This document shows positions 5,427 to 64,000 of a stretch of DNA of 64,000 nucleotides, piece by piece. A program made the translations under genes and the position numbers. The DNA is taken from contig JAJYWO010000002.1 of NCBI GenBank assembly GCA_021791445.1, positions 21,757-85,756 on the forward strand, in the 5' to 3' direction. The notes under the pieces were generated by a model, which searched no databases, had not been told where the DNA came from, and saw only the letters and a program-made list of their open reading frames with translations. Within the stretch, counting starts at the first letter, position 1; each line of letters begins with the position of its first letter. Source of the DNA: a bacterium. Lineage in GTDB: Bacteria; Patescibacteriota; Minisyncoccia; UBA6257; UBA9933.

Positions 5427-6803
5427 ATGAAGAAAGCAATCCGCATACATTTTATAGGCATAGGAGGCATTGGAGTAAGCGCGTTAGCGCGCTATTTTTT
5501 GTCTGAAGGCCATAAAATCAGCGGTTCGGACGCTTCCCGTTCGGAAATCACAGACGAATTAAAGAAAGAAGGCATAAAGATCTTAATTGGCCACAAAGCG
5601 GCTAATATCTTCAAGAGTATCGATTTAATAATTCATAGCGCCGCTGTTAATAAAAATAACCCAGAAATTGGAGGGGCTGAAAAACTTGGCATTCCCCTGC
5701 AATCTTACAGTCAGGCGCTCGGCGAATTGACGAAACAGCATAAAACAATTGCCGTGGCCGGCACTTGCGGCAAAAGCACCACCACCGCCATGCTTTCGCT
5801 TGTTTTTGCAAAAGCCGGATTAGACCCAACCGTGATAATCGGCACCAAACTTAAAGAATTTGGCGAAAAAAATTTCAGGAAGGGCAAAAGCGATTATTTA
5901 ATAATAGAAGCGGACGAGCATTTCAAGTCTTTTTTGGATTACTCCCCTTTTGCGGCTATTATCACCAATATTGACCGCGATCATTTGGATTTTTATAAAA
6001 ATCTCAATAATTTAAAAAAATCTTTTCTGGACTTCATCGGGAATATTTGTTCAGGCGGCGTTTTAGTTGTTAATAAAGACGATAAAAATTTATTCGGTTT
6101 AAAAAATAAAATCCAAAAAATTGCCAAGAAAAATAAATTAAAAATTATCTGGTATGGCAAAGAGGAAAAATTAAAAAATATTTTAAAAATACCGGGCAAA
6201 CACAATGTTTCCAACGCAACAGCTGTTCTTGAAATGGCAAAAGCGGTCGGCGTAAAAGAAAAAGTCATTTTAAGAGCGTTAAGCGAATACCGCGGCGCCT
6301 GGCGCAGAATGGAATACCGTGGAAATCTCAAATCTCAAATCTCAAATCTCAAAATTTCGGTTTATGACGATTACGCTCATCACCCCTCCAAAATAAAAGC
6401 CGCTTTGGCGGGATTTCGCGAAAAATATCCGAAATCGCGAATTATTTGCGTTTTCCAACCGCATCAGTTACAGCGGTTAAAATATTTATTCAAGGAATTT
6501 TCCGAATCATTCAATGACGCAGATGATTTAATTTTATTGGATGTTTATAAAGTAAAAGGCCGCGATGAGTCTCCTTCTAAAATTAATTCTCAAAAACTGG
6601 CAGAAGCGATAAAGAGAAAGAAAAATTCATCAGAGGTTTTATATCTCAAATCCGCCGGCTGGCGGGAAAATAATCTCAAAAAAGAGATTGAGAATATTAT
6701 TCGCAATTCGCGGCATTCGCATACATTCGCGGATTCGTATCATGTAATAGTGATGATGGGCGCCGGAGACATTTATAAATTAACCGATAAATTAATTAAA
6801 TAA
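5427..6803 (+). CDS. murC: UDP-N-acetylmuramate--L-alanine ligase (MurC/Mpl family)
   Basis: IHFIGIGGIGVSALA..GSD N-terminus and AGTCGKSTTT P-loop. The ATG at 5427 is preferred over the GTG at 5418. Contains an in-frame (AATCTCA)4 repeat at 6324-6352. Confidence 0.8.
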   Translation: MKKAIRIHFIGIGGIGVSALARYFLSEGHKISGSDASRSEITDELKKEGIKILIGHKAANIFKSIDLIIHSAAVNKNNPEIGGAEKLGIPLQSYSQALGELTKQHKTIAVAGTCGKSTTTAMLSLVFAKAGLDPTVIIGTKLKEFGEKNFRKGKSDYLIIEADEHFKSFLDYSPFAAIITNIDRDHLDFYKNLNNLKKSFLDFIGNICSGGVLVVNKDDKNLFGLKNKIQKIAKKNKLKIIWYGKEEKLKNILKIPGKHNVSNATAVLEMAKAVGVKEKVILRALSEYRGAWRRMEYRGNLKSQISNLKISVYDDYAHHPSKIKAALAGFREKYPKSRIICVFQPHQLQRLKYLFKEFSESFNDADDLILLDVYKVKGRDESPSKINSQKLAEAIKRKKNSSEVLYLKSAGWRENNLKKEIENIIRNSRHSHTFADSYHVIVMMGAGDIYKLTDKLIK

Positions 6804-9002: not shown

Positions 9003-9731
9003 TTAAATATTAAGATAGTTGCTCCACTTATCGTACAGTTCCTTCGTCGCTCTTAAATCGCCAGCGTTGTATCGGGCGATTTCCAAAAATTTTTTCTCTT
9101 TGTACAATCTGCCAACGTCGTCTCCGGTGACGCCGTCTTCTTTGGGGCTTTTTATGTTAAAAAGTTTGCTCCACAAATGCAGACTCCCCTTTTTGCGCAT
9201 ATTACCTTGAAAAGTGAGCTGGTCCGCCAAATCAATGTGCGTACAAGTTTTTTGTTGATATAAATACCGACTTTCGGAAAGATTTTTCGTGGGTCTGATA
9301 CCGTGATAAGCCGAGCGAATCATCAAAAACGGTCCGTCAAATTGCCGGCTGCTGAATCCGATAAATTCATCGTATATTTGGCTGCCCTTCCAGAAATGTT
9401 CCAACATTTCTTTTTCCGTCATTTGCTTGAAAGTGATGCCGTTTTCGCTGAATTCCTCTCCGCCAGCCGGCGGATTTTGTCCGGGCGCGCTGTAATAAAC
9501 AACCCCTTGGTTTTTCGCGTAATCCAAAACGCCGATTGCCACAATTTCTCCGGTTAAAGGCGAAAAACCGAGCCCGTTTTTCAGTTCTTCCAGAGCCACT
9601 TGATAATCCTCTTCTCCAGTTGATTCCTTTTTAATCCAGCGCGTCAAAGAATCTTGCGTTGTCTCGTCCAAAGAATCAAAATCAACTCCGATTGTCTCAA
9701 TATCAAAAATAAGCTTATTAGTTATTGACAT
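9003..9731 (-). CDS. RNase H-like 3'-5' exonuclease (DEDDy type)
   Basis: FDIET (Exo I), HIDLAD and Y-x3-D (YNAGD) motifs. Confidence 0.55.
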   Translation of the reverse strand: MSITNKLIFDIETIGVDFDSLDETTQDSLTRWIKKESTGEEDYQVALEELKNGLGFSPLTGEIVAIGVLDYAKNQGVVYYSAPGQNPPAGGEEFSENGITFKQMTEKEMLEHFWKGSQIYDEFIGFSSRQFDGPFLMIRSAYHGIRPTKNLSESRYLYQQKTCTHIDLADQLTFQGNMRKKGSLHLWSKLFNIKSPKEDGVTGDDVGRLYKEKKFLEIARYNAGDLRATKELYDKWSNYLNI

Positions 9732-15512: not shown

Positions 15513-15587
15513 TGGTGCGCGATAGAAGGATTGAACTTCTGACCTCTTCAATGTCAATGAAGCGCTCTACCACTGAGCTAATCGCGC
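15513..15587 (-). tRNA. tRNA-Val(GAC)
   Basis: Cloverleaf folded by hand. Anticodon loop TTGACAT. CCA is encoded. Confidence 0.85.
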
Positions 15588-15635
15588 ATATTATTTTTAC
15601 GATTAATATTATTTATTATTTTTTTATTTTTGTCC

Positions 15636-15652
15636 GCCTTCGGCGGATGAAC
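15636..15652. repeat. REP-like hairpin TCCGCC-TTC-GGCGGA in the tRNA-Ile/tRNA-Val spacer. A tRNA-Val 5' fragment lies nearby at 15733-15756.
   Basis: Seen in the sequence. The reverse complement of 15733-15756 (GCGCGATTAGCGAAGTGG) resembles the tRNA-Val 5' acceptor and D arm. Confidence 0.45.
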
Positions 15653-15759
15653 GCTCTTCCTGGGTGGCTTTTATTGTCTGTAAGCCGCCCGTTGGCCTGA
15701 TATAAATTTTACTTCGTAAAATTTATGTGGCCAACCCACTTCGCTAATCGCGCAATTTG

Positions 15760-22044: not shown

Positions 22045-22064
22045 GTTTTTAATAGCGCCCCCCT

Positions 22065-22322
22065 CTAAAACTTTTCTCGCTCACGACGCTCAGGTTAAAT
22101 AAATCAAATCACTCCAATCGCCCCGCACCTTTTCTTTTAATGATTTTTCTTTAATTTTACACTTAAGACGAAAGTCGGCTTCGCCTTTTAACTTTTTTTA
22201 TACTGTAAATCATGGCTGGAAAAGGTGCGGGGCTTCAATCCGCTCATTGATTTATAATTAACCTTGCGCGATGTTCGCTATGAAAAGTTTTGGAGGAGGG
22301 GTGTAAATAAAACTGAAAAATT
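22065..22322 (+). repeat. MITE-like element, copy A. About 60-bp imperfect terminal inverted repeats flank a 14-bp stem (GCCCCGCACCTTTT/AAAAGGTGCGGGGC) that encloses roughly 95 nt.
   Basis: The termini match the reverse complement of 42055-42306 at about 85%. The core differs between the two copies. Confidence 0.55.
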
Positions 22323-22492: not shown

Positions 22493-23554
22493 TTATTTAG
22501 GATTCAGTTTTTCAATAATCCCTCTGATTTCTTCGGGTGAGAAGAATGAAATGATAATTTTCCCCTTTTCTCCTTCTCCGCCGGCCGGCGGATCTATTTT
22601 CACCGGAGCGCCGAGAAGTTCCATCAACTGTTCCTGTAAGGCGCCGAGTTCCGGGTCTGTTGTTGGAATTTTCGCGTCTGCCGGCTGGCGGATGGTTTTT
22701 TCTTCCGTTGGTTTTGTTTCGCGCCTGATTTTATTTTTTAATTCCCTGACGCTTAAATTATTCGCCAAAAGGTCGTAAAAAGCCGCCATCTGCTGGCTTA
22801 AGTCGTTAATGGTCAAAAGCAACCTCCCTTGGCTGTCGTTTATTTTTCCTTCCGCGAGCGCGTCTTGGATTTCCGTGGGCAGATTCAAAAGTCGTATCGT
22901 GTTGGCGATTGTTTCACGGCTCTTGCCGAGCTTGGCGGCAATTTCCCTTTGAGTCAAACCAAAATGGTCTTGTAATTTGGCGTAAGCTCTGGCGGTTTCA
23001 ATGGAATTAAGATTGGCGCGCTGGATATTTTCCACAATCGCCATTTCCATTTGCGGAGCGCCCGGAGCGATTCTTTTAATAATCGCCGGAATCCGCTCAA
23101 GTCCCGCCAATTTTGAAGCCATCAATCGGCGTTCTCCGGCGATAAGCTGATATTCAATTTGCGTGCCGTTTTCAACTTCGTGTTCTATTTTCGTAACAAC
23201 TATAGGTTGAATAATTCCGAATTCGCGGATTGACGCCGCCAGTTCTTTAAGCGATTCTTCGTCAAAAGTTTTTCGCGGCTGGAAAGGATTGGGTTTTATT
23301 TTTTCTATTTCAATATGAAAAATCGCGTCTTTGTGGAAAGAAGATTTTTCTTCCACTGATTGCGGTTTAACTGCTTGCGGCTGTTCTTGCAGTTGCGTTT
23401 GCTGCGGCTGGACTTGCGGTTGAGAAACTTGCGCTTGTTGAATTTGCGGCGCGAATTCGTGATAATGTTCTGTATCCGTCAAAGGCAGCATAAACGGCGC
23501 TTCTTCCTGCGGCTGTTGAGATTGTTGGGGTTGTTGAATATTTTGTTCGTCCAT
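22493..23554 (-). CDS. parB: ParB/Spo0J-like partition protein with a Gln/Pro-rich N-terminal extension
   Basis: ParB N-domain (GIIQPIVV..GERR) and HTH. The first ~70 aa are Q/P-rich low complexity. A copy of the REP hairpin sits in frame at 22687-22702. Confidence 0.8.
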   Translation of the reverse strand: MDEQNIQQPQQSQQPQEEAPFMLPLTDTEHYHEFAPQIQQAQVSQPQVQPQQTQLQEQPQAVKPQSVEEKSSFHKDAIFHIEIEKIKPNPFQPRKTFDEESLKELAASIREFGIIQPIVVTKIEHEVENGTQIEYQLIAGERRLMASKLAGLERIPAIIKRIAPGAPQMEMAIVENIQRANLNSIETARAYAKLQDHFGLTQREIAAKLGKSRETIANTIRLLNLPTEIQDALAEGKINDSQGRLLLTINDLSQQMAAFYDLLANNLSVRELKNKIRRETKPTEEKTIRQPADAKIPTTDPELGALQEQLMELLGAPVKIDPPAGGEGEKGKIIISFFSPEEIRGIIEKLNPK

Positions 23555-23609
23555 CTCTTGATTTTAACTAAAAAAATAATTATTATCAATAAGTAAATTA
23601 TTAAATTTT

Positions 23610-23690
23610 GCCCGGGTGGCGGAATGGCAGACGCGCGCGACTCAAAATCGCGTGCCGTAAGGCATGGGAGTTCGACTCTCCCCCTGGGCA
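23610..23690 (+). tRNA. tRNA-Leu(CAA)
   Basis: Long variable arm. Anticodon loop CTCAAAA. Hand-folded, and the acceptor pairing is slightly irregular. Confidence 0.75.
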
Positions 23691-23705
23691 CCGACTCATA
23701 TAACC

Positions 23706-23756
23706 GCTCCCATAGCTTAGTGGTAAATCCGCCAGCTGGCGGACTTTTAAGCAATT
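23706..23756 (+). pseudogene. tRNA-Lys 5' fragment in which the D-stem 3' strand and anticodon-stem 5' strand are replaced by palindrome TCCGCCAGCTGGCGGA
   Basis: GCTCCCATAGCTTAGTGGTAAA is identical to the 5' end of the intact tRNA-Lys. It then runs palindrome (23728-23743) followed by CTTTTAAGCAATT. Confidence 0.5.
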
Positions 23757-23768
23757 AATTAATATATT

Positions 23769-24032
23769 ATGGAAAAATTTTTTGTCTATGCTATTTACAA
23801 TAAAGAAAAGAATAAAATTTATATTGGACATACAATTAATTTAGAAAATAGATTAAAAAGACATAATGGGTTATTGAAAAATAAAAATAAATCATTTACA
23901 AGTAAAAATAGCGGCGTATGGGAAATAATTTATAATGAGAATTTAAATGCAAGAAAAGAAGCGATTCTAAGAGAAAAACAATTAAAAAGCGCTAAGGGTA
24001 GAGAATTTGTAAAAAGTTTGATAAGAATATAG
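23769..24032 (+). CDS. Stand-alone GIY-YIG nuclease (YhbQ/Slx1-like, 87 aa)
   Basis: FFVYAIY...IYIGHT.NLE.RLKRHN plus conserved downstream E and R..GRE residues. Confidence 0.75.
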   Translation: MEKFFVYAIYNKEKNKIYIGHTINLENRLKRHNGLLKNKNKSFTSKNSGVWEIIYNENLNARKEAILREKQLKSAKGREFVKSLIRI

Positions 24033-24064
24033 AATATAAAATATTGGGTAAAAAATATAAATAC

Positions 24065-24135
24065 GCTCCCATAGCTTAGTGGTAAAGCAGTTGCCTTTTA
24101 AGCAATTGATCAAGGTTCGATTCCTTGTGGGAGCA
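24065..24135 (+). tRNA. tRNA-Lys(TTT)
   Basis: Canonical cloverleaf. Anticodon loop CTTTTAA. Discriminator A. Confidence 0.9.
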
Positions 24136-24151
24136 CATTTGGCTTTTTTAA

Positions 24152-24228
24152 ATCCATAGCTTAGTGGTAAATCCGCCGGCTGGCGGACTTTTAAGCAATT
24201 GATCAAGGTTCGATTCCTTGTGGGAGCA
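24152..24228 (+). pseudogene. tRNA-Lys-like pseudogene with a degenerate 5' acceptor and palindrome TCCGCCGGCTGGCGGA (24172-24187) in place of the anticodon-stem 5' strand
   Basis: The 3' two-thirds are identical to tRNA-Lys. The 5' acceptor AAATCCA cannot pair with TGGGAGC. Confidence 0.5.
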
Positions 24229-24240
24229 AATTAAATAAAA

Positions 24241-24266
24241 ATACCCGATATTGTCGGGTATTTTTA
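24241..24266 (-). terminator. Terminator after dnaJ
   Basis: Hairpin atacccgatattgtcgggtat plus a T-run. Confidence 0.5.
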
Positions 24267-24267
24267 T

Positions 24268-25383
24268 TTAATCCATTTCTTTTTTTAAATCCTCCAATAT
24301 TTTTTTCGCTTTCGCATTCGGTTTTTTCGGGGTTTTGATTTTCAGTTCAACAACCAGATTACCGCGGCCGTGCGAGCCGAAAATCGGCATCCCCTGTTTT
24401 GAAATTATCAAATCTCCTTTCAAATCAAAATTTTCCGGAATTTCAATCTGGATTTTATTGCCGTCAATCGTTGGCGCTTCAATTTTTTCTCCCAATAAAA
24501 TATCAACCAGCTTCACTTCTTTTTTAACAAACAAATCATTTCCGCGCCTGTTGAAAATATGATGCGGCTTTATTTTGATTCGAACATAAAGGTCGCCGGT
24601 TCCCGCCCCTTTTTCTCCGGCTTCGCCCGCGCCTTGAACTTTTATTAATTGTCCGTCCATTATGCCCGCCAAAATTTCAATTTTTACATTGCGTTCGCCG
24701 GAAATTCTTCCGGCGCCGCGGCAATTATGGCAAACTTTTTTCGGAATCTGTCCGCTGCCTTGGCATTCTTTGCATTGTTTGATTTGGGTAAAATTGCCGA
24801 AAAAGGTGCTTCTCGCTTCTTTAATCTCTCCCCTGCCTCCGCAAACAGCGCATTTTTCCAATCCTTCTTTAATATCATAGCCTTTGCTTTCGCATTTTTC
24901 GCAAGAAACGGAAATGCCGTATTTTAATTCTTTTTTCGCGCCGTAAAAAGCTTCTTCAAGCGTTATTTCCTGGATAATTTCAACATCCGCTCCGCGATGG
25001 TAAGTGCGGCGTTTTTGTCTTACGCCCATTCCTTCGAAAAACGCGTTGAAAATATCGCCCAAGTCGGCCATATCGCCGAAAGCCGAAGGGTCCCAGCCCG
25101 AGGCTGGTCCGCCTTGGGCGGAAAAATCAAATCCGAATCCAAACGGACCGTTTCCATCGGAAGCGAATCCGCTTTGGCCGTCAAAAACCCTGCCGTATTT
25201 GTCATATTGCTCCCGCTTGTTTTTATCCGACAAAACCGCGTACGCCTCGGCGATTTCCTTGAATTTTTTTTCATCGCCGCTTTTTTTGTCCGGATGATAT
25301 TGATGCGCTAATTTTCGGAAAGCTTTTTTAATTTCGTCTTCCGACGCGCCTTTGTTTATGCCGAGAATTTTATAGTAATCCAA
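24268..25383 (-). CDS. dnaJ: Chaperone DnaJ
   Basis: J domain with HPDK and four CxxCxGxG repeats. Apparent TTG start. Confidence 0.9.
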
Positions 25384-34535: not shown

Positions 34536-34536
34536 T

Positions 34537-34623
34537 CGGAGAGGGTGGGATTCGAACCCACGGTTCGGTTTCCCGAACAACTTCTTAGCAGGAAGCTGCT
34601 TTCGACCGCTCAGCCACCTCTCC
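34537..34623 (-). tRNA. tRNA-Ser(GCT)
   Basis: Long variable arm. Anticodon loop CTGCTAA. Discriminator G. Confidence 0.85.
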
Positions 34624-34630
34624 AATATTG

Positions 34631-34873
34631 TTATTCTTGAAAAAGATATTTAATTCGTTCTCTTCCTTTCCCTGACTTCAAAAATAATTCTTCTCTTTTG
34701 GCATCTTTCTCTGAAATAAAAGCTTCATAATAAATTAATTCCCAAGGACCATTGTTTTTAGTAAAAATAGAATTGCCGGAATTATGTTCTCTGATTCTTC
34801 GTCTTAAATCATTAGTATAAGCCTTGTATAATTTATTATTTTTTAAACTTTTTAATATATAAACATAATACAT
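34631..34873 (-). CDS. Stand-alone GIY-YIG nuclease (80 aa), immediately upstream of tRNA-Ser
   Basis: YYVYIL...LYKAYTNDLRRRIREHN plus a conserved E and GRE. Confidence 0.75.
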   Translation of the reverse strand: MYYVYILKSLKNNKLYKAYTNDLRRRIREHNSGNSIFTKNNGPWELIYYEAFISEKDAKREELFLKSGKGRERIKYLFQE

Positions 34874-34883
34874 AAAAATTAAT

Positions 34884-34929
34884 ATTACTACTCTCAGCCC
34901 TAGGCTGATCCGCCTCGGGCGGAAGCCAC
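34884..34929 (-). repeat. tRNA-Ser 5'-like fragment (GGAGGCGTGGCT) interrupted by two hairpins, TCCGCC-CGA-GGCGGA and TCAGCC-TAG-GGCTGA, then GGCTGAGAG
   Basis: Minus-strand reading compared with tRNA-Ser GGAGAGGTGGCTGAGCGG. Same architecture as 23706-23756. Confidence 0.45.
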
Positions 34930-34981
34930 GCCTCCAAAAAATCCTTGTAATTATCGCAAATTTCTGATACTTTTACAAGAT

Positions 34982-42054: not shown

Positions 42055-42306
42055 TTTTTATTACGCCCCTCTCCAAAACTTTTCATAGCGAACATCGCGC
42101 AAGGTTAAGGATAAATCAATGAGCGGAATGAAGGATTTTTTGACTATAAATTTAATGGTCGGAAAACTCCTGACATAATTTTACGAAGTAAAATTATGGC
42201 GGAGGGTAAACGGGCACCGTTAAATTTATTCAAAAAATCAGATTGGAGCGATTTGATTTATTTAACCTGAGCGTCGTGAGCGAGAAAAGTTTTAGAGAAG
42301 GGCGCA
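42055..42306 (-). repeat. MITE-like element, copy B. Inverted relative to copy A, with the same terminal repeats and a different core that contains hairpin CATAATTTTAC-TTCG-GTAAAATTATG.
   Basis: Both ends match 22065-22322 in reverse complement. Abuts the stop codon of the SIMPL gene. Confidence 0.55.
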
Positions 42307-53953: not shown

Positions 53954-56038
<2,085 letters not shown>

Positions 56039-57049: not shown

Positions 57050-57748
57050 TTATTTTATTTGTTCAAAATCCTTAAAAACGACCAATGCGATAATTATCAA
57101 TAAAAACAGCGGATAAAGTAACATGCTTAAAACGCTTATCTTGCTGGAAATAAGTATAAGATAATTGAAAAAACCGTGCAAGACACTGGCGATGACAAGA
57201 CCTGTAATAATTTTTAATTTCCATCCGCCGGCCGACGGATTAATTTTCAATAAACCCTTTGCCCAATAATAGCCGACAATGGCCGAGCTTAAAGCGTGCA
57301 ATAAAGTGGCGCCATTGAAACGAATAACTAAAAGTCCGTAAATTCCGCCGTCTTGCCAACCGTTGTCTATGAAAGCGCTCGCGGCCAAAAAGATATTTTC
57401 CAAAGCCGCGAACCCCAAAGCCGCGGTAATCATATAAATCATCGCGTCAACCGGCTCGTCGAAATCCTTATCGCCTTTCACGGTGGCGTAAACCACCAAA
57501 AATTTCAAAACTTCCTCAACCGCCCCTAAAACCAAAAAAGAGAAAAAATCAAATTCTCCGATTTTAAAAAAATTCAAAATGTCCTTGAAAAAAATCTGGA
57601 AAACCACCGCCATAAAAGCGACTATCATTCCCCAGATAAAAACCCGCGCCAGCTTTTTTTTCGGCTCCGGGTGGTCATCCTCTTTCAAAAAGAAAACAAG
57701 CCAGATTAAAGACGGCAAAACGCCGAGCAAAATAGCAAAAATCAACAT
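57050..57748 (-). CDS. PrsW-like intramembrane protease
   Basis: EEVLKF (EExxK), GFAALENI and conserved His residues within TM helices. Confidence 0.5.
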   Translation of the reverse strand: MLIFAILLGVLPSLIWLVFFLKEDDHPEPKKKLARVFIWGMIVAFMAVVFQIFFKDILNFFKIGEFDFFSFLVLGAVEEVLKFLVVYATVKGDKDFDEPVDAMIYMITAALGFAALENIFLAASAFIDNGWQDGGIYGLLVIRFNGATLLHALSSAIVGYYWAKGLLKINPSAGGWKLKIITGLVIASVLHGFFNYLILISSKISVLSMLLYPLFLLIIIALVVFKDFEQIK

Positions 57749-60670: not shown

Positions 60671-60705
60671 TAATAAAATTATACATATTTTCGGCAAATA
60701 AAAAA

Positions 60706-60821
60706 GCCGGCAAACCCTACTTTCCCAGCCGTCGAAACAGCAAGTATCATCGGGACTGCGCACTTTCACTGTCCTGTTCGGAATGGGAAGGAGTGGTGCA
60801 TACGCAGCTAAATCACCGGCA
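60706..60821 (-). rRNA. rrf: 5S rRNA
   Basis: Reverse complement contains CCCATTCCGAACAGGACAGTGAAA with complementary termini GCCGGTG/TTGCCGGC. Confidence 0.8.
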
Positions 60822-60843: not shown

Positions 60844-60932
60844 AATCGTAAAATTATTTCTGAAACCTAAACGGAAGCGCAGTCCGCCCTGGGCGGACGT
60901 GAGCGGGTTGAAGAAATAATTTTACGATTGCG
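60844..60932. repeat. 20-bp perfect inverted repeat (GCAATCGTAAAATTATTTCT/AGAAATAATTTTACGATTGC) enclosing REP hairpin TCCGCC-CTG-GGCGGA, in the 23S-5S spacer
   Basis: Seen in the sequence. Could be a processing stem or an inserted element. Confidence 0.4.
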
Positions 60933-60979
60933 TTTCAAAACTTATCCAACTTATTGAATCTTAAATTTTTGAAGAAAAC

Positions 60980-63958
<2,979 letters not shown>

Positions 63959-64000
63959 CTTCTCGAATTTAAGATTCAAGAAGTTGGACAATTTATATTT

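Follow-up and report, generated by a model that had tools for sequence, protein, structure and literature searches.

A GIY-YIG nuclease gene between hairpin-bearing tRNA copies: a candidate selfish cassette at tRNA genes of Patescibacteria

Free-standing genes for GIY-YIG homing endonucleases are known from T-even phages (PMC13096335; PMC2988022), and the product of one of them, SegB, cleaves tRNA genes internally and sets off segmental amplification that depends on recombination (PMC13096335). A minimal, stand-alone Slx1-like branch of the superfamily was described by Dunin-Horkawicz et al. 2006 (PMC1564403). Its UPF0213 proteins are regarded as vertically inherited and of the repair type, with no tRNA linkage or hairpin partner described, and eukaryotic members of the Slx1 branch cut branched and stem-loop DNA (PMC1564403). 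The tRNA genes of Patescibacteria are hosts to group I introns, which are self-splicing, sit at position 35/36 and for the most part lack an endonuclease gene; the paper describing them mentions neither GIY-YIG nor palindromes (PMC13011429). The present study concerns a GIY-YIG gene lying among tRNA genes in 64,000 nucleotides (nt) of a patescibacterial genome (assembly GCA_021791445.1, contig JAJYWO010000002.1, positions 21,757 to 85,756). I will refer to this whole stretch as the window and count positions from its first letter. A preliminary description of the locus, made from the sequence, had proposed that the gene, flanked by palindrome-bearing partial copies of tRNA-Lys, forms a small unit, mobile or recombining, for which the tRNA-Lys gene is both target and scaffold.

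The unit, called the cassette below, has three parts: a minimal GIY-YIG gene, a partial tRNA copy interrupted by a hairpin, and an intact tRNA. This architecture is shared by two subfamilies of the nuclease and is conserved at no fewer than eight species of tRNA. On balance I lean towards considering it a selfish, recombination-driven tRNA-gene cassette of Patescibacteria, in which the hairpin would be the DNA substrate of the nuclease. The connection between nuclease and hairpin and the route of insertion are what I infer; the parts and their recurrence are observed.

The cassette at tRNA-Lys

The order on the plus strand is tRNA-Leu, a 5' fragment of tRNA-Lys (fragment A), an open reading frame (ORF) encoding a GIY-YIG protein of 87 amino acids (aa), an intact tRNA-Lys(UUU) (copy B), a second partial copy (copy C) and a terminator (Table 1). 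The neighbors of the locus, both encoded on the minus strand, are parB on the upstream side and dnaJ on the downstream side. The elements of the preliminary description were confirmed in the order given there, the tRNA genes by ARAGORN and Rfam (tRNA threshold 29 bits), the ORF by Pfam and the partial copies from the sequence. Fragment A (23706-23756, with G1 at 23706 rather than 23705 as first placed) does have a perfect 5' acceptor and D arm followed by a 16-bp palindrome in place of the native sequence, and copy C (24154-24228) does carry a variant of the palindrome at the same position, with its 3' part intact. The direct repeat that they form exists as well, although it is longer than the 45 bp or so first estimated: 53 nt at 94% identity, the two copies 444 nt apart. 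The nuclease ORF (264 nt) is the sole gene between the two repeats.

The tRNA scan suggested in the preliminary description separates the three copies clearly. B is scored as a functional gene, C reaches 21.9 bits in Rfam with no ARAGORN call, and A gives no Rfam tRNA match and no ARAGORN call; neither A nor C has a cloverleaf above the Rfam threshold or a full acceptor stem. The Rfam scan of the region returned nothing above threshold except tRNAs, and sub-threshold matches of RNA families to the terminator hairpin were put down to chance. Intron_gpI gave no match even at E<=1 (23300-24500). An endonuclease encoded in a group I intron was rejected, there being no Intron_gpI fold and the tRNA-Lys being present uninterrupted. 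The promoter-like site upstream of tRNA-Leu, judged from its sequence, is a possible start of a transcription unit comprising tRNA-Leu, A, the ORF, tRNA-Lys and C.

Table 1. Positions of the cassette, of related modules and of solo hairpins in the window. A dot in the strand column marks features listed without strand.
Feature	Position	Strand	Basis or remark
Promoter-like site, upstream of tRNA-Leu	23558..23586	+	TTGATT-17-TATTAT, 9/12 consensus matches; weak evidence
tRNA-Leu(CAA), upstream neighbor of cassette	23610..23692	+	ARAGORN; Rfam tRNA 53 bits
Fragment A, arm L: tRNA-Lys positions 1-22, GCTCCCATAGCTTAGTGGTAAA, same as copy B	23706..23727	+	Sequence; repeat family D2; exact match through 22
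Fragment A, hairpin P: TCCGCCAGCTGGCGGA, in place of tRNA positions ~23-30 (GCAGTTGC)	23728..23743	+	Predicted hairpin as single-stranded DNA, -6.5 kcal/mol
Fragment A, arm R': anticodon loop and 3' strand of anticodon stem, CTTTTAAGCAATT	23744..23756	+	
Stand-alone GIY-YIG nuclease gene, 87 aa, Slx1/UPF0213-like	23769..24032	+	Pfam PF01541, E=1.9e-16
Copy B: intact tRNA-Lys(UUU), functional gene	24065..24136	+	ARAGORN; Rfam 77.7 bits
Copy C, arm L': tRNA-Lys positions 5-22; first 4 nt of acceptor strand absent	24154..24171	+	
Copy C, hairpin P: TCCGCCGGCTGGCGGA	24172..24187	+	Predicted hairpin as single-stranded DNA, -7.5 kcal/mol
Copy C, arm R: anticodon loop to 3' end of tRNA-Lys, same as B	24188..24228	+	Repeat D3 at 98%
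Terminator-like hairpin, 20 bp, closing the unit; shared with end of convergent dnaJ	24230..24272	+	
Second module at tRNA-Ser, whole	34536..34935	-	tblastn 37% identity to first ORF; Pfam E=2.4e-14
Second module, tRNA-Ser-like 5' fragment	34924-34935	-	
Second module, hairpin TCCGCCCGAGGCGGA, 15 nt	34909-34923	-	
Second module, hairpin TCAGCCTAGGGCTGA, 15 nt	34894-34908	-	
Second module, GIY-YIG ORF, 80 aa	34631-34873	-	
Second module, tRNA-Ser(GCU), 6 nt past the ORF	34536-34624	-	
ORF-less relative at tRNA-Val, whole	15513..15753	-	Sequence
tRNA-Val 5' fragment, 11 nt	15743-15753	-	
Hairpin TCCGCCGAAGGCGGA, ending the ~110-nt structured spacer	15633-15647	-	
Intact tRNA-Val	15513-15587	-	
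Solo hairpin in parB	22577..22592	.	Encodes DPPAGG; +12-nt insertion/deletion relative to L085
Second parB hairpin, slightly degenerate, TCTGCCGGCTGGCGGA	22677..22692	.	
Double hairpin in dnaJ G/F region, 30 nt	25093..25122	.	
Solo hairpin in ligA	54385..54400	.	
Second ligA solo hairpin	55516..55531	.	
Solo hairpin in Mur-ligase gene	6651..6666	.	
Solo hairpin in PolB-exonuclease-like gene	9459..9474	.	
Degenerate hairpin in PrsW-protease gene	57224..57239	.	

The protein matches the Pfam GIY-YIG model at 60.5 bits (cut-off 22.6) over residues 4-78, and Y7, Y18-I19-G20, R28, H32 and E69 are invariant across 42 homologues. The motifs, the conserved Arg and Glu and an alpha/beta core identify it as a member of the GIY-YIG superfamily (PF01541). 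The AlphaFold2 model (predicted local distance difference test score, pLDDT, 93.6) consists of a three-strand sheet plus helices. The nearest PDB sequences are the UPF0213 proteins 1ywl and 1zg2 (E~2e-6; ~20-25% identity), and a Foldseek search with the model returned 1zg2 and Slx1 with a probability of 1.0 and TM scores of 0.63-0.67, and I-TevI only at E~1.1. The minimal domain is closer to the stand-alone Slx1/UPF0213 branch than to the UvrC or homing-endonuclease branch. By sequence and by model, then, the protein is a minimal stand-alone GIY-YIG domain of the Slx1/UPF0213 type, not of the I-TevI/Seg type. Scores with more specialized models agree: SegE_GIY-YIG gives 17.9 bits (cut-off 25) and the NCBIfam model for group-I-intron endonucleases 31 bits (cut-off 56), and no NCBIfam family, named or housekeeping, reaches its cut-off with the 87-aa protein. 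A homing endonuclease has a DNA-binding domain that reads a long target; here all 87 aa are catalytic domain. The preliminary description, in treating the gene as a homing-endonuclease or nickase module, was right as to the GIY-YIG domain, but the domain is a bare catalytic one and not that of a typical homing endonuclease. Similarity to the fold of Slx1 suggests that the nuclease may cleave branched or hairpin DNA in a structure-specific manner.

Most homologues are 80-110 aa long, and the family comprises 2,520 protein clusters at E<=1e-10. Homologues at ~50% identity occur also in Bacteroidota and Ignavibacteria. IMG/VR holds no close relatives; the 15 matches that it gave are distant and cover part of the protein, at the N-terminal motif, and a phage origin was set aside for that reason.

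Homologues of its ParB place the organism among the Patescibacteria as a Wolfebacteria-like member. The locus can be compared with its counterparts in related genomes by the synteny of ParB, tRNA-Leu, tRNA-Lys and DnaJ. None of the five related genomes compared has the arrangement of the window. The empty sites that the preliminary description proposed to look for were found: at the locus in L085 and L086 (ParB 82-85% identical), tRNA-Leu is followed by an unrelated 158-aa ORF and a single tRNA-Lys with the sequence of B, and there is no GIY-YIG gene and there are no tRNA fragments. L106 is clean too, with a single tRNA-Lys identical to B and a different unrelated ORF. In L088 there is a 5' Lys fragment, about 130 nt of hairpins, no ORF and then the intact gene. 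The contigs of two ParB homologues, L104 and L107, end before tRNA-Lys and so are uninformative; the recovered sequence of L107 contains no tRNA-Lys. L104, like L085-L087, comes from Hainich groundwater. Because none of the five shares the arrangement, it cannot be called fixed, nor is the gene a housekeeping YhbQ ortholog that stays at one site, as would be the case if the locus were ancient and invariable. The proposal of a mobile or recombining unit is thereby supported, its presence being sporadic at the same locus in close relatives, as is typical of homing-type elements.

The locus of L105 is heavily rearranged. At tRNA-Lys it has 5' fragments with other hairpins, a 3' fragment with an insert in the T-loop and a truncated GIY-YIG ORF of another subfamily. 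Local alignment showed its resident tRNA-Leu to be split in two: a 5' piece, which bears a hairpin, is identical to the gene in the window at 13/13 positions and a 3' piece at 48/49. Between the pieces lies a different, intact tRNA-Leu(CAA), only 60/86 identical (L105 2150-2432, locus minus strand). The inner tRNA-Leu is flanked by a 14-nt inverted repeat and is clearly foreign. Among the other relatives, too, tRNA-Leu differs markedly (65-77 identical columns of 83-87).

The flanks give some indication of which tRNA-Lys copy in the window is the older resident. The downstream flank of C with its terminator aligns with the flank of the single gene in L085 at a score of 26; shuffles reach 16 at most, and the flank of B scores 7. 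Since it is the flank of C that matches the native flank, the 3' end of the original gene is probably preserved in C, and B probably lies within the inserted material.

An artefact of assembly was ruled out as the source of the arrangement by an independent ENA assembly (L001), which spans the whole locus with 1 mismatch, at 24205. Of three other contigs, one from NCBI and one from Logan match the locus at 100%; the last, also from Logan, matches at 99.8%, its three mismatches lying upstream (22238-22257). All three terminate inside or at the edge of a repeat. The same may be common elsewhere, for 20 of the 80 loci surveyed below in GTDB genomes lie no more than 600 nt from an end of the recovered sequence, usually a contig end. 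The cassette seems to break short-read assemblies and for that reason is probably under-counted.

Recurrence of the design and of its hairpin

A profile built from 42 homologues was run against GTDB species genomes and gave at least 546 loci, the best 80 of which were analysed. They span many lineages of Patescibacteria, Moranbacteria, Kerfeldbacteria, Shapirobacteria, Woesebacteria, Saccharibacteria and Doudnabacteria among them. A tRNA lies downstream on the same strand, from -45 to +150 nt of the ORF end, at 64 of these 80 loci and directly upstream of the ORF at 7 more; most of the remaining 9, which have no adjacent tRNA, are interrupted by the end of the recovered sequence. The partner could be typed at 67 loci and is Asn(GUU) (25), Lys(UUU) (22), Lys(CUU) (18) or His (2). 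The ORFs follow the isotype of the tRNA: in 51 of 67 cases an ORF and its nearest neighbor in sequence are linked to the same type of tRNA, and Asn-linked ORFs are 60% identical among themselves as compared to 49-51% with Lys-linked ORFs.

Nearly every locus has a partial copy of the partner tRNA on the other side of the ORF. With two exceptions out of 61, these fragments begin at position 1 and match the local tRNA exactly as far as the start of a GC-rich hairpin. In most Lys fragments the switch to the hairpin comes at tRNA position 22-25, and in those of Asn, of His and of a few Lys at 13-14; the hairpin that opens there is nearly always the same palindrome. When CCGCC-N2-10-GGCGG was sought no more than 400 nt from the ORF, the hairpin TCCGCC-N4-GGCGGA turned up at 70 of the 80 loci, with 119 copies as against 18 in 340 kb of flanks, and TCCGCCAGCTGGCGGA by itself makes up 49 hairpin copies in these loci. 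The hairpin occupies a fixed position, 10-35 nt ahead of the start codon. The order hairpin-ORF-tRNA holds at 63 loci, 16 of which have extra copies of the hairpin downstream, like the window; the mirror form ("type II": tRNA, ORF, hairpin copy) is found at 7. Tandem arrays occur in L046, L058, L023 and L070, with L058 reading A-ORF-A-ORF-B-C and L046 containing at least five A units of 65 nt. Altogether more than 140 loci from unrelated samples share the design.

The mirror form was also found outside Patescibacteria, in a metagenome-assembled genome of Chlorobiota (L053, 1100-2010), where the order is tRNA-Asn, the GIY-YIG ORF, a 3' copy with hairpins, a second ORF and a further T-arm fragment. 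Its hairpins lie in the anticodon region and the T-loop (TCCGTT-AGCT-AACGGA and TCCCGAC-TGTT-GTCGGGA) and are compensated variants.

The ORF and the downstream tRNA often overlap. The stop codon lies within the tRNA at 40 of the 64 loci (e.g., L052 3228-3246, L047 and L076), and at 31 loci the overlap is exactly 10 nt, the stop codon being TAG at tRNA positions 8-10. A stop codon inside the tRNA implies co-transcription. RNase P processing of the joint transcript could then strip the stop codon from the message, leaving a non-stop mRNA, and so act as a built-in brake on expression.

The hairpin itself is constrained by its pairing. Among 31 distinct double hairpins all 372 of the 372 stem cells are paired. 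Two-sided changes are seen in 60 stem cells, as compared to 19.4 in shuffles (none of 500 shuffles reached 60), and the covariation collapses in slid controls. Compensatory changes affect 5 of the 12 stem pairs (T-A to C-G, C-G to A-T or G-C), and a G-T pair is found in 1 case in 372. Since the palindromes are near perfect and copies lie inside genes in either orientation, a hairpin or cruciform at the level of DNA fits better than a helix in RNA, and the hairpin would accordingly act, to judge by its sequence, as a DNA structure. Its placement is also regular. Within tRNA genes the hairpins always fall in the loop regions of the gene's stem-loops (D-loop, T-loop or the center of a quasi-palindrome), and the hairpin of tRNA-Lys is centered in the native quasi-palindrome GCTTA..AAAG[..]CTTT..TAAGC.

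A second subfamily of the nuclease, represented in the window by a module at tRNA-Ser (Table 1), repeats the design, and covariation is seen in the stems of its hairpins. It gives 780 matches at 70-95% identity across the phylum. In the 80 metagenome loci surveyed, a tRNA is downstream of the ORF in 67, of which 59 have it within 0-16 nt, and the partner is Ser(GCU) in 34, Ser(UGA) in 14, Ser(CGA) in 8, Ser(GGA) in 6, Tyr in 3 and Cys in 2. Some 40 loci have an exact 5' fragment (1-12 or 1-13), the double hairpin lying between positions 12 and 13. Such a spread of one design over Lys, Asn, His, Ser, Tyr and Cys tRNAs enlarges the proposal of the preliminary description and does not contradict it.

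The window contains in addition a relative of the cassette at tRNA-Val that has no ORF. Its structured spacer folds with z = -5.15, and about 65 nt of the spacer's core are ~75% identical to the tRNA-Lys remnant of L088. It may be a non-autonomous derivative or a small RNA.

Finally, the palindrome, which the preliminary description gave for the cassette, is not private to it: about 15 hairpins are present in the window, against 0.01-0.04 expected by chance, and it is better regarded as a conserved hairpin of the whole lineage. The solo hairpins in housekeeping genes are in frame. Comparison of frame-preserving insertions and deletions among relatives covered those in parB and dnaJ. The parB hairpin is present, degenerate or absent among close homologues, and the double hairpin of dnaJ is present in the window and in L105 and absent from L085, L086 and L088. 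No common target motif was found at the flanks of the solo hairpins. Dispersal of the hairpin is pronounced in the lineage of the window.

Two hairpin-like matches, at 60883 and 62671, lie in or beside the minus-strand genes of 23S rRNA (60969-63962) and 5S rRNA (60705-60820) and may be helices that belong to the rRNA, not insertions. The window also holds an element of about 240 nt, resembling a miniature inverted-repeat transposable element, in two inverted copies (22060-22305 and 42056-42305). Its ends, about 55-75 nt, are conserved and are mutually inverted repeats, and its interior is divergent; one of the copies lies between a relA/spoT-like gene and parB.

How the cassette may arise and persist

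If the cassette is selfish, its life may be pictured as follows. Its tRNA-derived arms, the only sequence shared between genomes, would let it enter a tRNA gene by homologous recombination. Insertion would leave outside it a 5' piece of the resident gene (A) and a 3' piece with the terminator (C), and the inner intact copy (B) would preserve the viability of the cell. The hairpin would inactivate the spare copies and disrupt their homology to B, so that the cassette is lost more slowly by recombination between repeats. It would also be the structure that is nicked or cut by the Slx1-like, structure-specific nuclease. The break would start gene conversion or duplication, through which the cassette is copied into naive tRNA genes, and the same events might build the tandem arrays of fragments and seed solo hairpins elsewhere in the genome. 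The geometry of the repeats suggests two further outcomes: recombination of B with C would yield the common hairpin-ORF-tRNA form, and recombination between the arms of A and B would delete the ORF precisely and restore the naive site. Campbell-type, ends-in and synthesis-dependent strand annealing schemes were each considered, and none of them alone explains the hairpin in both flanking copies.

Several observations weigh against this account. The nuclease and the hairpin are associated by position only, and nearly all of the homologues are short, with no obvious DNA-binding domain that would read the sequence of a hairpin. Palindromic covariation could stem instead from a dimeric DNA-binding protein. 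Solo hairpins are far rarer in most other genomes than in the window, and so their dispersal may be a separate process. The design is old, the ORFs of different lineages being only 50-70% identical; since it is old and its subfamilies track isotype, long-term vertical retention or a benefit to the host would fit as well. No circular or excised form was seen, nor was any gain caught in the act.

A wider claim, that the hairpin and a minimal Slx1-like nuclease make up a new kind of mobile DNA system, responsible for insertion of the cassette together with a replacement tRNA, tandem amplification of fragments and in-frame seeding of hairpins in essential genes, I put forward tentatively, as one that may well prove too broad.

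The best of the alternatives makes the protein a classical free-standing homing endonuclease, which cuts the naive tRNA gene in the region of the D-loop or anticodon stem, with repair from the allele bearing the cassette. The hairpin would then be an insertion that renders the spare copy uncuttable and provides a portable left homology arm. Several observations speak for this: presence varies among close relatives, ORF subfamilies track the tRNA isotype, the arms are identical to the tRNA, the hairpin sits at the very place where it would destroy a target site, and SegB of phage tRNA clusters sets a precedent (PMC13096335). However, B has the same sequence as the naive tRNA-Lys in L085 and L106 and would therefore be cut as well. 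The protein is no more than a catalytic domain, with SegE below its cut-off and a weak match to the fold of I-TevI. Moreover, any disrupting insertion would confer immunity, which leaves unexplained a hairpin that is conserved and covaries over phylum-level lineages and several tRNA species, and solo hairpins in protein genes find no explanation either. Because B is the naive allele and immunity fails to account for the covarying hairpin, I think homing in this form unlikely, and weaker than a selfish cassette whose nuclease acts on the hairpin.

A domesticated host module is somewhat less probable again. Nuclease and tRNA would be transcribed together, the fragment with its hairpin would serve as an RNA leader in processing, stability or regulation, and the protein would work in, for example, DNA repair. 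The very broad conservation of the design with intact ORFs accords with such a role, as do the constant distance from hairpin to start codon, the stop codons placed inside the tRNA, and the promoter-like site ahead of tRNA-Leu with the terminator past C. Yet the cassette is missing from the same locus in close relatives with an identical tRNA, and type II loci hold the hairpin copy downstream of the ORF rather than in a leader. Tandem arrays, remnants without an ORF and truncated ORFs (L046, L088, L105) resemble the decay of a parasite. Wobble pairs are almost nil, which would be unusual for an RNA helix, and the same hairpins occur in the coding regions of unrelated genes. Absence in close relatives, mirror forms, arrays and decayed copies together favor a parasite over a host role.

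The preliminary description had offered a decoy-tRNA system as an alternative, the palindrome-bearing copies serving as tRNA mimics that absorb anticodon nucleases or other toxins that target tRNA. Anticodon nucleases classically attack the tRNAs for Lys, Asn and His, and the Lys-type fragment does retain the anticodon loop. But A lacks the whole 3' half and C the 5' acceptor strand, so that neither can form an acceptor stem and neither passes as a tRNA in the scans above; the fragments of the Asn, His and Ser types end before the anticodon; and the nuclease gene is left without a role. The idea is very improbable and has been dropped. Leftovers of an integrase-type island at a tRNA gene, or an artefact of assembly, are hardly credible and effectively refuted: partial tRNA copies are typical of integrative elements and several assemblies break within the repeats, but no integrase accompanies the one small ORF between repeats that include the 5' part of the tRNA and carry the hairpin, an independent assembly spans the locus, and the design recurs at the many unrelated loci counted above.

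Patescibacteria have tiny genomes and single-copy tRNA genes, yet hundreds of their species tolerate a nuclease cassette at these genes. If the cassette is selfish, it enters an essential gene but brings along or restores a functional copy of it, and the tRNA serves as its universal arm of homology. Should the hairpin be the substrate of the nuclease, it would provide the bacterial Slx1/UPF0213 family with a concrete, testable DNA target, and, if this is true, short GC-rich in-frame insertions in the housekeeping proteins of these organisms would be explained. There is a substantial chance that the pair of hairpin and nuclease represents a new mechanism of mobility, in which case it would be a GIY-YIG counterpart of REP/RAYT (repetitive extragenic palindromes and their associated transposases) or of IS200/IS605, and among the smallest known autonomous mobile units of bacteria. 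On the practical side, the fragments can confuse the annotation of tRNA and the repeats break assemblies, and the presence or absence of the cassette could serve as a fine-scale strain marker.

Comparison with described systems

No description of the cassette was found in the open-access papers searched, even by the sequence of its palindrome, and one may exist elsewhere. The window presents one instance of a large, apparently undescribed class of candidate selfish nuclease cassettes at tRNA genes, which shares features with several systems that have been described.

Integrative elements that target tRNA genes likewise insert into the gene and keep it functional by duplicating tRNA sequence. 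They do so by means of a tyrosine integrase, however, and duplicate only the 3' end of the tRNA. The cassette has no integrase or other recombinase gene; it duplicates the 5' part (as in the upstream repeat) or the whole of the tRNA, and its spare copies carry a hairpin. The group I introns are found in the same phylum and in the same host genes, tRNA-Asn included, and are selfish and tolerated in an essential tRNA, as the cassette may be. In contrast to them, the cassette has no intron fold, its tRNA is uninterrupted, and an intact copy stands beside broken ones.

Among elements made of short palindromes, the REP/RAYT systems (REPtrons) offer an analogy: a short GC-rich palindrome is dispersed, constraint falls on its hairpin and not on its primary sequence, and copies of it flank a nuclease gene. 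RAYTs, however, belong to the HUH/Y1 enzymes, and REPs are extragenic. The protein associated with the palindromes here is a GIY-YIG nuclease and no HUH/Y1 transposase, and the hairpins of the cassette, unlike REPs, occur in tRNA fragments and in frame inside genes. The palindromic elements of Rickettsia and the GC clusters of yeast mitochondria are 30-150 bp in length and are not known to have a dedicated nuclease gene. The cassette hairpin may be likened to them, but it is only 15-16 nt long (30 when double) and is tied to the GIY-YIG cassette.

By sequence and fold the closest known proteins are the UPF0213/Slx1-like stand-alone proteins (PDB 1zg2, 1ywl), which consist of the same minimal domain. 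As to function, the nearest analogue would be SegB. In both cases a GIY-YIG gene lies among tRNA genes, is sporadic in its distribution and is tied to recombination-driven duplication of tRNA segments. SegB, however, is a phage protein with a DNA-binding region, which recognizes a loose motif inside intact tRNA genes with no preference for isotype, and it is not accompanied by a hairpin-interrupted half copy of the neighboring tRNA. The nuclease of the cassette is an 80-90-aa domain of the Slx1/UPF0213 type, chromosomal in Patescibacteria and specific to the isotype of its tRNA.

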